A stretch of DNA of 64,000 nt, taken from contig NC_090364.1 of NCBI RefSeq assembly GCF_035084215.1, forward strand, positions 4,526,001 through 4,590,000. The letters run 5' to 3'. The first letter of the stretch is position 1, and every line of letters begins with the position of its first letter. A model generated the notes under the pieces. That model saw nothing but the letters and a program-made list of their open reading frames with translations, did not search any database and was not told the origin of the DNA. The translations under genes were made by a program, and so were the position numbers. The stretch comes from Heptranchias perlo. Lineage: Eukaryota. Of the stretch, positions 1-63,912 are shown one piece after another.

Positions 1-1038
1 ATGACCCGCTGCGCGGTGGCCTCCAGCGGGTCCACCGGCAGGAAGGTCCCGCCCACCGTGAGCCCCTTACTAAGGGCCAGGGACACCGCCCGCTCGGACC
101 TCAGGAAGAACACCGCCCTCCCGTACATTTTTGAGGCCGCGACGATGGCCAAGGGGCCGACAACCTCGGCCATGGCCTTAACGCAGGCCTCAATGGTCAT
201 GTTGGGGTGGGCGTAGCTCTTCACCCCATGCTTCCTCGTAATGAGGCGGAAAGGCGCCGGCCCAGCAGGAGCGGCACGAACTGTAGGAGCGGCCCCCGAG
301 GTAACCGCCGAATACGTCCTGCTGGGTCCCGGCACCGGCGAAGATGGTGAAGCCATGACTTTAAGAGCCACACCCACCCCAAGTCTCAGGCCTTCGGATG
401 GAAATTGGCCTGTTTTGAAAAGAATCCTTGAGGAAACCTCTCTCCCCGAATCCCAGTGCTTGGTTGGGAGAGGGGCCCCTTTGTTGGTTTTTAAATTTTC
501 CCCAAGAACACCCTGGAGAGCAAGGGAATATCCTGGAGAGCAAGAGAAGGAAGGAAGGAGGGATGGATGGCAGAATGGGAAGGAGGGAGTCTGCAGGGGT
601 AGGCTGCTGTGGAAGAGGGGCGGGGTTGCACCTTAAAAGGTGGATCTTCTTCTGGTGGGCAGGGGGAGGAGATGTCTTCCCCGAGACAGCTGGAGCTGCC
701 GAGGCTCAGTCCTCCAAAGATTTGAAAAAGAAAGAAAGTAACTTCACCCAGGCAGCTCCAGCTGTCCTGGGCCAGACACTTGGGGGGGACCCCTGTCCTC
801 TAGTCTTCTTCCTCCCCCTACCTTCAGCCGACACACCTCACTGCACCGACCACCTCTTCCTCCCACTGGTTGGTGCTCTTTTTCTCCTTCTCCCTCCCTC
901 CTTGTTGATGGTGGTTTCTCCTTCTTTCTCCTTCTCCCCAAGGGACCCAGGCAAGGGCCTGCTCTCTCTGCTCTCTCTGCTCTCCACTCCACTCAGTGGC
1001 AGTCCAGCCACAAACACCTCCAAGGCCGAGCTGGTCTG
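1..1038 (-). mobile_element. Tx1-clade non-LTR retrotransposon copy A (5' UTR and start of ORF1; runs off window edge)
   Basis: Near-identical to 46822-47854 (copy C) and homologous to 6917-7946 (copy B). ORF1 ATG at 356 (MASPSSPVPG...). Confidence 0.93.
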
Positions 1039-1347
1039 AACAAAGACACTTTCAGATTGGAGGGAGGATTTTTTTCTCTTTTTTTTTTTCTCTTTGGATG
1101 TTGTCAGAGTCCGTGGCCCACGGACTCTGCCTCAGGCTGATTGGGACAGACAATTAGTGCCAGTTAACAGCACTGCGATAAAGAGAGGAGTCGGTTCTCC
1201 ATTTTTCTTTTTTTTTCCAAATTAGGCCCCCCTTTTATAAGAAGGGGGGTGTGGGGTGTGCTTAAATACTAAAACCAAACCAAAACCAAGTGTTCAAATT
1301 AAAATTTTATTATCCTCGTCCAGGATGCACTCCAGCCCCTGCGGTGC

Positions 1348-60950: not shown

Positions 60951-62015
60951 GACTGAGAGAGCCACACCCACCCCAAGTCTCGGGCCTACTGATGAATTTA
61001 GGCCTTTTTTTTTAAAAGAAGCCCTGAGGAAACCTCTCTCCCCGAATCCCAGAGCTTGGTTGGGAGAGGGGCCCCTTTGCTGGTTTTATTTCCCCCAGAA
61101 TATCCGGGAGAGCAAGAGAAGGTGGGAGGGATTAATGGTGGAATGGGAAGGAGGGAGTCTGCAGGGGTAGGCTGCTGCAGAAGTGGGTGGAAGAGGGGCG
61201 GGGTTGCACCTTAAAAGGTGGATCTTATTCTGCCTGTCTTCCAGTGGGCAGGGGGAGGAGATGTCTTCCCCTAGACAGCTGGAGCTGCCGAGGCTCAGTC
61301 CTCCAAAGATTGAAAAAGTAACTTCACCCAGGCAGCTCCAGCTGTCCTGGGCCAGACACTTGGGGGAACCCCCTGTCCTCTAAGGTCTTCTTCCTCCCCC
61401 TACCTTCAGCCGACGCACCTCACTGCACCGACCTCCTCTTCCTCCCTCTGTTCGGTGTCGCAAACCACCAGCAGCAGCAGCAGCAGCACAACCCCTCCCG
61501 GCTGCTGTTTGGTCGTATTCTTCTTCACCCTCCCTCCTTGTTGATGGTGGTTTCTCCTTCTCCTTCTCCTTGACTCAGAGGGACCCGGGCAAGGGCCTGC
61601 TCTCTCTGCTCTCTCTGCTCTCCACTCAGTGGCAGTTCAGCCACAATCAGCTCCAATGCCGAGCTGGTGTGTCTCAAAGACAACCCAACAGAGATGTGAT
61701 CAGATTCCGTTTGAGGAAAGTCAAAGAAACCAACAGCAATGGCATCACAGAATAATTCTCCAATCCCACCTGTATTCCAAAGCTCTGATTGGCTCTGGAT
61801 ATCAATCTCTCCCCCAGAGCCCTGTCCTTTGTTAATTGGTGCTTGGATTCATGGACGATTCCTGAGTGGTTATCGAGGATTGTCAATCATCATTGGTGAT
61901 GTCATTCCTTGCTTCAATGCTGGCTGTCCCAGTAGTATAAATACAAGAGCTTGTGAATGAAGAGGGTAGTTGTAGAACTGTCCAGGTGATAGTGAAAACA
62001 TAGGATACAGGAAAG

Positions 62016-63912
62016 ATGGAGTCCCAAGTGTGTCAGAACTATCACAAGGAGTGTGAGGATGGTGTCAACAAACAGATCAATATGGAGCTCTATTCCTCCT
62101 ATGTTTACCTCTCCATGGTGAGTCTTGTATTAATAGTCACTGTTTTGTAAGTGGTTAGAATTTCTGTAGTTCAACAAACTGGCTTTAAACTCTTTCTCTT
62201 GGCTTTGTTCCACCTCCCTGGGGAGAAAAATCTTGGGGCAGTGAGTATTTCTGGTGTGTAATACAAGGTGATCTTGTTGTGTTATTGGACTGCTCCTTAC
62301 AGCAGCTGCACTCTATTGAGGGGTTTAATATATGAACCTGGCTCAGCTGCTGCCTGAGTCTGTAAGAGAAGAGCAGAAACCTGGTCAAGTGCTTGTCAAC
62401 ACTTGACAACTTTCAGTTTCAATGGGGTGACTGTAGCCAGTGAGATGTTGACAGGTCCTCACTAGTTTTCTTGCCTTGAGAATCCTAGTGATTTCTTCAC
62501 TGTGCTGAGATCTCTATTACACTAAATTGCAGAGTGTAAAACTACAAGAATGAAGGAACTTTCTTTTGTCCTCCATCAATTTTAGATTAGAATGGAGAGT
62601 AAAAGGAGGGACAACTTGCTCAGGAGTTGAGTTTGACTTGATGTGAAATGTAATCCCAAACATTAGTAGTTTTTTTTGCTGCTTGACTCTTTATTCTGTC
62701 CTTTATGGGGAAGGGAAGCTCACCAAATGAAAGTGAAGTAATTTGAATTTTGTGAGTTAACAAATGGTAATTATTTTTGAAAGCAATTAATATCTTGAGG
62801 AAAAAGGAATGAAAAATTTGTAATTGTATATTGTAATCTAGGTCTAGCATGATGTATTTAAAATTCCCTCCACAGTCCTATTACTTTGACCGGGATGATG
62901 TTGCCCTGCGTCACTTTGCCGAGTTCTTCAAGGAGCAGTCACATGAGGAACGGGAGCACGCTGAGAAACTGCTGAAATTCCAGAATCAGCGTGGAGGCCG
63001 AATCATCTTGGAGGAGATCAAGGTTTGATTTAATAAATGAGTGGTCTTCTATGTGGCTCCCCTTGGACTGATTATTTCAAAAATTTTCTACAGCAATTCT
63101 ATTTTATTTGACTCCAGTTACTTAATTCAGTCATTCTATAATCTTGACATTGGTTGATGGTAACATGGACATCTGATTTGCTTTTTTGAACTCCTCCTAT
63201 TTTCCTTCAATACTTTGTCATGTATTTTGTTTAATCCATTGTAAGTGATCTGGCTGACCTTTGATTCCCATTTCAGAAGCCAGAGCAAGATGAGTGGAGC
63301 AATGGTCTGGAGGTGATGCAGAGAGCTCTGCAGATGGAGAAGAATGTGAACCAGAGTCTGCTGGATCTGCACAAACTCTCCACTGAGAGGACAGACCCTC
63401 ATGTAAGTTGTTAATGTGGGCCTTTGGGTAAGTTGGAGATGGAATGTTACAGTTCTTGAGTCTATTAAGATCTTTTACCCAATAGCTTTGTGGAGGGATG
63501 TCTACCTTGGATTTTTTTGAGGGGAGAAAGGACAAGGAGGTTGACCTACTGTGGCCATTGAGAGGTAAGTGTGTCCCAGTGTCATGAGGATCTATGCACC
63601 TGTTGTACAGTGAGTTTACTCTAATAATGCAGTAATTCCATCAATCTGAAGTGTTCCACTTGACTATCCTCCAGTCCAAGAGGATTGAATTCCAAACTCT
63701 GGCAAATGCCTTGCTATCTGCAGCTGGACATAACTATTCTCTATCTTTTCTTCCAGTTGTGTGACTTCCTGGAGAGCCACTACTTGGATGAACAAGTGAA
63801 GATGATCAAGAAGCTTGGAGATCACATCACCAACCTGAAGAGACTGGGAGCCCCTGAGAATGGCATGGGAGTGTACCTGTTTGACAAGCTCACCCTGGGG
63901 GAGAGTGATTAA
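62016..63912 (+). CDS. Ferritin H/M-type subunit, copy 9 (176 aa)
   Basis: Exons 62016-62117, 62876-63022, 63277-63402, 63757-63912; near-identical to copy 4, introns included. Confidence 0.95.

Follow-up and report, generated by a model that had tools for sequence, protein, structure and literature searches.

A Tx1-clade LINE with a strong but leaky preference for multicopy, likely oocyte-expressed gene promoters in Heptranchias perlo

The DNA analysed here is a 64,000-nucleotide window of the Heptranchias perlo genome (C43:4526001-4590000 of a 3.25-Gb assembly, whose contigs carry C-labels throughout), which holds nine ferritin exon-1 copies (Pfam Ferritin) and five GC-rich antisense copies, A to E, of a long interspersed nuclear element (LINE). 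Its sequence places the element in the Tx1 clade of non-LTR (long terminal repeat) retrotransposons, as a recently mobile family. Following it through the assembly reveals a strong but leaky regional preference for multicopy gene promoters that are likely to be oocyte-expressed, namely those of ferritin, of the zona pellucida genes ZP3 and ZP4, and of a locus termed Y. Judged from sequence, full-length copies are probably steered to these promoters by oocyte-promoter chromatin or a factor bound there, and not by a long target sequence. ZP3 and ZP4 are egg-coat genes, and some fish express them in liver; the targets plausibly share the egg cell rather than sequence.

Insertions at four multicopy promoters

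Near-full-length copies were surveyed using a 29-mer within open reading frame (ORF) 1 as key, and classed by 5' flank. Among the 100 copies listed, from 102 matches, 96 lie at, or in tandem to, four promoter types:

Ferritin in the 5' flank: 49 of 100 listed
Locus Y: 20 of 100 listed
ZP3: 17 of 100 listed (10 antisense, 7 whose sense head contains TATA and ATG)
ZP4: 3 of 100 listed
Directly behind another copy: 7 of 100 listed (six behind a promoter-resident copy, one whose partner was not seen)
Elsewhere: 4 of 100 listed, on C1, C9, C31 and C33, judged on ~600 bp of context

Many of these copies are duplicates, raw counts being inflated by segmental duplication; with segmental duplicates among them, neither the five window copies nor the raw genome-wide copies were accepted as independent events. 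Of the 5' ends that were fetched, 29/30 adjoin a ferritin promoter and the exception, on C30, retains 9 nt of it. We also rejected 5' junctions as evidence of targeting, because heads (the promoter DNA at element 5' ends) are inherited with the element.

At least 135 exact ferritin exon-1 matches exist genome-wide, and 72 exon-1 matches fall in 464 kb of the C43 array; among 100 listed, all are on C38 or C43 except three singles isolated off the arrays (C5:24822347, C9:17349917 and C26:22521859), which are possibly retrocopies. ZP4 was identified by its Trefoil, ZP-N and ZP-C domains (Pfam), and C49 carries an element array antisense within a ZP4 promoter. This trefoil-plus-ZP family is multicopy and dispersed on C23 (2.6-29.6 Mb), with 13 or more promoter matches in a scored set of 40. 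ZP3 was identified by a ZP-N domain and PDB ZP3 matches; its start region gives 95 exact matches, with 92 on C38 and three unplaced contigs. A block of interleaved ferritin and ZP3 genes, duplicated ~30 times, occupies C38 (~9.3-17.8 Mb), C725 and C1048 (L211-L245), and in many of its ZP3 copies a short sense Tx1 fragment replaces the TATA box region. In a C38 subfamily (L284, L285, L292, L299), the ZP3 promoter, TATA, 5' untranslated region (UTR) and first codons are fused in sense as the element 5' end. ATTGG boxes and a TATA-like word mark locus Y, which is present in 17 exact copies; those bearing Tx1 arrays are ~99% identical on seven contigs, and one outer 3' junction is common to seven Y arrays. 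The locus is promoter-like with apparent splice donors (L147:380-1500; L247:1560-3900) and is hit at more than 10 positions; a scan of 90 of its 117 listed frames matched only two LINE fragments.

At one ferritin position, site 1, 77 junctions resolve into at least 17 separate tails, the bases differing after the element end, and the tags there (transduced promoter pieces) match at least six different ferritin paralogs at 100%. Site 2, with 17 junctions, is likewise reused to the nucleotide, and other ferritin junctions range from -335 to -44. The first-pass annotation of the window had proposed repeated independent insertion into a multicopy RNA polymerase II (Pol II) protein-coding promoter, with a preference that is regional and not single-nucleotide. 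The site-1 tails bear out the first part; the second agrees with junction positions that number dozens over four unrelated promoters and define no single target sequence. Amplification of one insertion, which it had weighed against its own proposal, fails genome-wide on the at least 17 separate site-1 poly(A) tails, several of which match different paralogs at 100%. Its choice of ferritin as the specific target does not survive, as the same family, with a near-identical endonuclease, also occupies ZP3, ZP4 and locus Y promoters: targeting is regional, not ferritin-specific.

The distribution within an array was sampled over 464 kb of the C43 ferritin array, insertion rows being collapsed to events by hand. 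Of 20 events, 17 fall in the 900 bp that precede an ATG, a zone making up 17% of a unit (binomial p = 5.6e-11), and the remaining three are in exon 2, intron 1 and intergenic DNA. Eight of the 17 are old remnants (~73-81% identity), and the preference is therefore long-standing. Selection would not be expected to clear introns yet spare promoters.

Probable steering, promoter capture and the endonuclease

Several points weigh against steering, the first being how much of the family lies elsewhere. The family 3' end has 556 exact matches, most of them dispersed 5'-truncated copies; the first 100 listed are spread evenly over C1-C7, and in an unbiased dispersed sample (the first 30 of the 3'-end matches in genome order) all are 5'-truncated with unrelated flanks, 0/30 being at ferritin. 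Dispersal at unrelated flanks, which the first-pass annotation had held to be damaging, thus applies in part, as it describes most 3' ends. A ferritin-type 3'-UTR pattern gives 80 matches, 43 of them on ferritin contigs and ~39/80 in ferritin promoters; 32 of those 43 represent one event copied with the C38-type block, which inflates the raw count, and collapsing leaves ~5 ferritin, one ZP3 and two Y residents versus ~32 dispersed. Under the working rule of PMC4494074, an element counts as target-specific when over 20% of its flanks are of one kind; the ferritin-flanked share here is 49 of 100 listed near-full-length copies and ~39/80 ferritin-type 3' ends in raw counts, ~5/40 collapsed ferritin-type events and 0/30 unbiased dispersed copies. 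The 3'-UTR subtypes do lean to given targets, as descent or RNA homology would equally produce. Smaller sets of dispersed loci were used for target-site duplications (TSDs; 60 loci), the nick consensus (34) and promoter motifs (28). Within 150 bp of the last set, a small sample without gene annotation, none of CCAAT, E-box, TATA and CpG is enriched; these sites are not promoter-like, and therefore the preference does not reach promoters in general. The target promoters share no motif that we could find beyond ATTGG/CCAAT and TATA, a search for the product of locus Y gave no Rfam match in 4 loci, and steering does not explain why copies at ferritin, ZP4 and Y are mostly antisense. The survey sees insertions that survive in one assembly only; the case for oocyte expression draws on another shark where ferritin is concerned, and on general knowledge where the ZP genes are.

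The dispersed majority, together with the strong amplification, would also suit insertion at random, with copies in redundant arrays surviving, amplifying and becoming the sole transcribed sources; tags, moreover, can report transcribed donors only. Such a process leaves unexplained why 17/20 collapsed C43 events are promoter-proximal with neutral introns nearly empty, and why at least 17 insertions struck the same nucleotide. The four targets amount to ~170 kb (~0.005% of the genome), so that by our estimate ~0.002 of ~40 ferritin-type events would be expected there versus ~8 found. Enrichment at the four targets is thus estimated to be of the order of a thousandfold, yet most insertions miss, and insertion without any targeting is largely refuted and very improbable.

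Dispersed copies carry a record of their origin, often reading, in order, poly(A), a piece of promoter, a second poly(A) and the TSD. Of 34 dispersed ferritin-type copies, 14 carry ferritin tags, which mostly start at site 1, and ZP4, ZP3 or Y tags occur in 12/30 unbiased dispersed copies compared with 1/30 control segments; source copies therefore live in these promoters. Some tags are serial (ferritin>ZP3>ferritin, ZP3>Y, Y>ZP3>Y and ferritin>Y, with ZP4>ferritin in copy B), and their sequence reads as a record of moves between unrelated promoters.

Heads tell of capture at the other end. The head of copy E is of a distant ferritin paralog type, giving way to the local allele within a stretch common to both, and the head at site D is native to other paralogs and at C43:4614833 stands in place of the local promoter; recombination could explain both. 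It cannot explain a ZP4-headed full-length copy in Y flanked by 29-bp direct repeats (a TSD), which implies that heads travel in RNA. A spliced origin of the Y-ZP4 junction on C1098 was considered and rejected, the 29-bp TSD being present. A dispersed full-length copy retains 9 nt of the site-1 head. Transcription probably starts within host promoter DNA, and the heads and tags are explained no less well if the promoter serves as a germline on-switch than if it is the 'safe haven' suggested by the first-pass annotation.

Heads that are carried, and that switch alleles inside homologous stretches, raise the possibility of a homology-guided return, in which founders land by chance and promoter sequence in the RNA (a head or 3' read-through) then pairs with homologous promoters without any chromatin tether. 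The ferritin-type subtype, with 36 ferritin-antisense keys versus 4 ZP3/Y keys, and the TTTGG type, mostly at ZP4, agree with this, and co-transcribed target RNA is said to strengthen R1/R2 targeting (PMC4494074). Four chance founders would nevertheless be needed, all in CCAAT/TATA promoters that make up an estimated ~0.005% of the genome; serial tags show moves between non-homologous promoters; and site-1 tails differ right past the element end, the alleles differing 3-12 nt from the junction. We regard return by homology as an unlikely source of the pattern, and homology as likely to help join 5' ends and not to choose sites.

When the apurinic/apyrimidinic-type endonuclease (APE) domains of copies living at ferritin, ZP3, ZP4 and Y are aligned singly over their full length, identity is 93-100%, one frameshifted copy excepted. 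The hairpin of these domains is three residues shorter than in Tx1L, without the RDGH tip; in Tx1L the same hairpin reads DNA (PMC1950540). The hairpin (copies L263, L301, L307, L308) and one other short stretch hold most of the variation of these otherwise near-identical domains. With a slash marking the nick or junction, the off-target consensus is N/TT (T at +1 in 28/34 and at +2 in 21/34). On the sense strand of one ferritin unit, 8/13 RGATT words lie inside the gene, and no junction was found at any of these words. Near-identical domains, the missing tip, the N/TT rule and the unused in-gene RGATT words together make the enzyme alone unlikely to pick targets. An enzyme that recognizes the hot spots TTCAGA/TT and CCTGGA/TT by sequence or structure, as Tx1L reads Tx1D, with ferritin as the true target, would account for the exact reuse of sites 1 and 2 (77 and 17 junctions), which have GA/TT in common, and for hairpin variants (RAGGGSS, RAAGGST and RAVGGCT) that partly follow targets. 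The ZP3, ZP4 and Y junctions lack such a word, and the off-target rule, the unused in-gene words and the missing Tx1L specificity tip tell against it too, making it improbable.

A weak nicking rule and targets unrelated in sequence, with a ferritin cluster that is ovary-specific in another shark, would also be expected of an untethered element active in oocytes that passively enters the most open DNA, that is, very highly expressed promoters. The dispersed sites are not promoter-like, though many other genes must be open in oocytes, and a thousandfold enrichment with fixed hot spots exceeds what accessibility by itself usually gives; we consider this decidedly improbable.

Under active steering, which we favour, a relaxed endonuclease would nick T-rich spots in an exposed promoter, with poly(A) priming reverse transcription, and the host promoter would drive element transcription in the egg cell. 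The carried head may then anneal to a homologous promoter, homology helping 5' joining, so that a full-length insertion is completed and tandem arrays arise; off-target events would mostly be truncated dead ends, and segmental duplication with unequal crossing-over would then multiply and shuffle copies. Candidates for a bound factor are NF-Y and FIGLA. It is possible, if on balance doubtful, that an oocyte transcription factor or a chromatin mark tethers the LINE to promoters of genes for egg bulk products (ferritin, ZP3, ZP4), the LINE capturing them as interchangeable on-switches and hopping among them, long-standing across sharks and rays; this would make it the first non-LTR element targeted by a tissue programme and not by DNA sequence.

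The element and its relatives

The element is ~6.74 kb long with two ORFs. ORF2 gives Pfam Exo_endo_phos and RVT_1 matches above cut-off in copies B and E, and ORF1 has a visible CCHC knuckle (C-x2-C-x4-H-x4-C; zf-CCHC E=0.0017, slightly below the curated cut-off). Copy E is the sole window copy with both frames open (ORF2 of 1301 aa; ORF1 with the knuckle); ORF2 of copy B ends 18 codons before that of E, and D is frameshifted. Membership of the Tx1 clade, as first proposed, is upheld by 51% identity of ORF2 to Xenopus Tx1L over 1288 columns and by a reverse transcriptase (RT) tree of 25 rows, in which Tx1L, turtle and sturgeon rows fall in one group with the element (support 96/97) and its nearest row is a ray protein (99/98); three candidates were omitted as short or lacking an RT match, and the tree is without named L1, Keno or Kibi rows. 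TSDs are present in 38/60 dispersed loci with a median of 12 bp, alongside poly(A) tails and 5' truncation; a long TSD of 21-23 bp, like that of Tx1L, is unsupported by this off-target median. Relatives elsewhere are protein matches only, their flanks unseen (horn shark, 67% over part of the query; ray, 77% in RT), and a metagenome scan for relatives found none. Four sequencing runs guessed to be RNA (one sample, tissue not known) give contigs spanning ferritin introns at GT..AG and the element body, with no strand or level; one such contig (X6) joins the element 5' end to promoter DNA, a weak hint.

Tx1L of Xenopus laevis, whose target is the Tx1D DNA transposon, is alike in its two ORFs and APE plus RT domains (RT 65% identical, same supported group). 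It nicks almost solely one defined site (PMC1950540), whereas the present family has many sites in four unrelated promoters, a shorter RDGH-less hairpin and hundreds of dispersed copies. Keno (U2 snRNA), Kibi and Koshi (microsatellites), and the crocodilian Tx1-Mar (Mariner-N4) and Tx1-9_AMi (Harbinger) belong to the same clade and share multicopy targets and tandem insertion. Tx1-Mar shows a preference and not strict specificity, and flank transcription has been proposed for SINEU (PMC4494074). Compared by description, the targets listed for those Tx1 families in the cited part of PMC4494074 are RNA genes, satellites, microsatellites and transposons, with no protein-coding promoter. The rDNA elements R2 and R1 are alike in having a multicopy home, dependence on host transcription and target RNA carried along (PMC4494074), and differ in their single conserved site and Pol I locus, R2 also in endonuclease class (PMC4640811). 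Tf of fission yeast, the P element, Mutator and mPing are promoter-preferring LTR or DNA elements that use many genes; here a non-LTR element keeps to a few multigene families, whose promoters it takes up as heads and tags. A genome-wide promoter preference of the Tf or P-element type was not seen at the 28 dispersed sites, a small sample without gene annotation.

In the cited portions of five papers (PMC4494074, PMC8869645, PMC4640811, PMC1950540 and PMC6719617), non-LTR targets are rRNA, tRNA, snRNA, spliced-leader, microsatellite, telomere and transposon sequences, and promoter preference is described for LTR and DNA elements only. The literature, as far as these portions go, credits target choice by site-preferring non-LTR elements mainly to the endonuclease. 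Our literature search found no ferritin- or ZP-targeting LINE; Repbase and Dfam were outside its scope, and a database note on the family may exist. Ferritin genes number 155-179 copies in three clusters in Greenland and great white sharks, the ferritin cluster being ovary-specific in the Greenland shark (10.1101/2024.09.09.611499), compared with at least 135 exact exon-1 matches here; 'Tx1' does not occur in the main text of that paper. If steering to egg-gene promoters holds, the targets are of a kind new to this class of element. One near-invariant, apparently relaxed endonuclease in unrelated protein-coding promoters points to a second layer of LINE targeting, which intact copy E, defined targets and serial tags tracing each copy's route make testable. 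Residence in egg-gene promoters, and their capture, also illustrate a way in which a LINE could come to be expressed in the germline, and they matter for how the large ferritin and zona pellucida arrays of sharks turn over.

The ferritin window

The features of the window are as follows:

1..1038, minus strand: Tx1 copy A, 5' part (5' UTR and ORF1 start); internally deleted duplicate of C that runs past the window edge
1039..1068, plus strand: ferritin promoter piece, the site-1 head of A and also the 3' junction of B
1069..1211, minus strand: B tail, with poly(A), a ~107-bp transduced ZP4-type promoter tag (~1090-1196) and a second poly(A)
1212..7946, minus strand: Tx1 copy B, full length; ORF1 5229-7274, ORF2 1348-5199 (APE and RT)
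7947..8277, plus strand: ferritin gene 1 promoter (ATTGG boxes, TATA), meeting the B 5' end at site 1
8278..10810, plus strand: ferritin gene 1, four exons; pseudogene with stops in exons 1 and 2
13311..13682, plus strand: upstream of gene 2, old sense Tx1 3' remnant (13324-13565, ~78% identity); tail and 13-bp TSD present
13965..41454, plus strand: ferritin genes 2-7, ATG near 13965, 19130, 23885, 29923, 34222 and 39235; exons complete, stop-free
23011..23319, plus strand: old sense Tx1 remnant upstream of gene 4; relatives at 33344-33655 and 38591-38831
23661..23702, minus strand: insertion of poly(A) alone into the gene 4 promoter, flanked by a 14-bp TSD
44462..45421, plus strand: ferritin gene 8, ending inside exon 2
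45422..45623, minus strand: C tail, with poly(A), ~178 bp of transduced upstream DNA of another ferritin paralog type and a second poly(A)
45624..47854, minus strand: Tx1 copy C, element positions 1-2006 joined to 6522-6725; duplicate of A
47855..48015, no strand assigned: site-1 head of C, then D tail carrying the same ZP4 tag as B
48016..54793, minus strand: Tx1 copy D, full length; ORF2 frameshifted over three frames; 3' junction as in B
54794..54868, plus strand: 75-bp ferritin promoter piece, the site-D head of D and the site-2 3' junction of E
54869..61671, minus strand: Tx1 copy E with poly(A); element itself 54890-61671
61672..61797, plus strand: E head, promoter DNA of a different ferritin paralog type, local allele from within a shared stretch
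62016..63916, plus strand: ferritin gene 9, exons complete; downstream of the promoter 99.6% identical to gene 4

Re-reading the sequence confirmed the five antisense copies at these positions, their 5' junction motifs, the GGA/TTT 3' junctions (1068, 47884 and 54868), the 13-bp TSD (13311/13670) and the 14-bp TSD around a poly(T) (23661/23689). The five young copies are not independent: with inherited 5' heads set aside, their 3' ends reduce to three events in the window (A/C, B/D and E). Between A, C and a third copy at C43:4605435, 27-35 of ~2,670 columns differ, flanks included (~1%). The 3' junction and tail are common to B, D and a third block outside the window (the final bin of the alignment has 1-4 mismatches), and their 5' parts are mosaics swapped between copies. 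Nor is the 3' side of C a lone exception lying directly in exon 2, as had been thought: A has the same 3' side just beyond the window, and ~178 bp of upstream DNA from another ferritin paralog and a second poly(T) precede the exon. The 3' ends of B and D, similarly, do not join ferritin DNA directly, the ~107-bp transduced ZP4-promoter piece intervening. Older sense remnants are present as described; those in genes 2, 4, 6 and 7 have a common 5' junction region, and a single old event is their likely source.

Among genes with a young element in the promoter, 3/8 were scored intact compared with 57/64 without; edge or insertion effects may account for two of the five scored as 'broken', and the difference is therefore no firm sign of harm to the host gene. 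Gene 4 matches gene 9 at 99.6% identity (23689-25870 versus 61820-64000), and the gene 5 promoter and exon 1 have a 100% copy just past the window; this reflects either a very recent ~38-kb duplication or an assembly haplotype duplication. The tails of the old sense remnants (13566-13669 and 23300-23560) carry tags of further unnamed sequences with E-box and ATTGG words, possibly from earlier target promoters.

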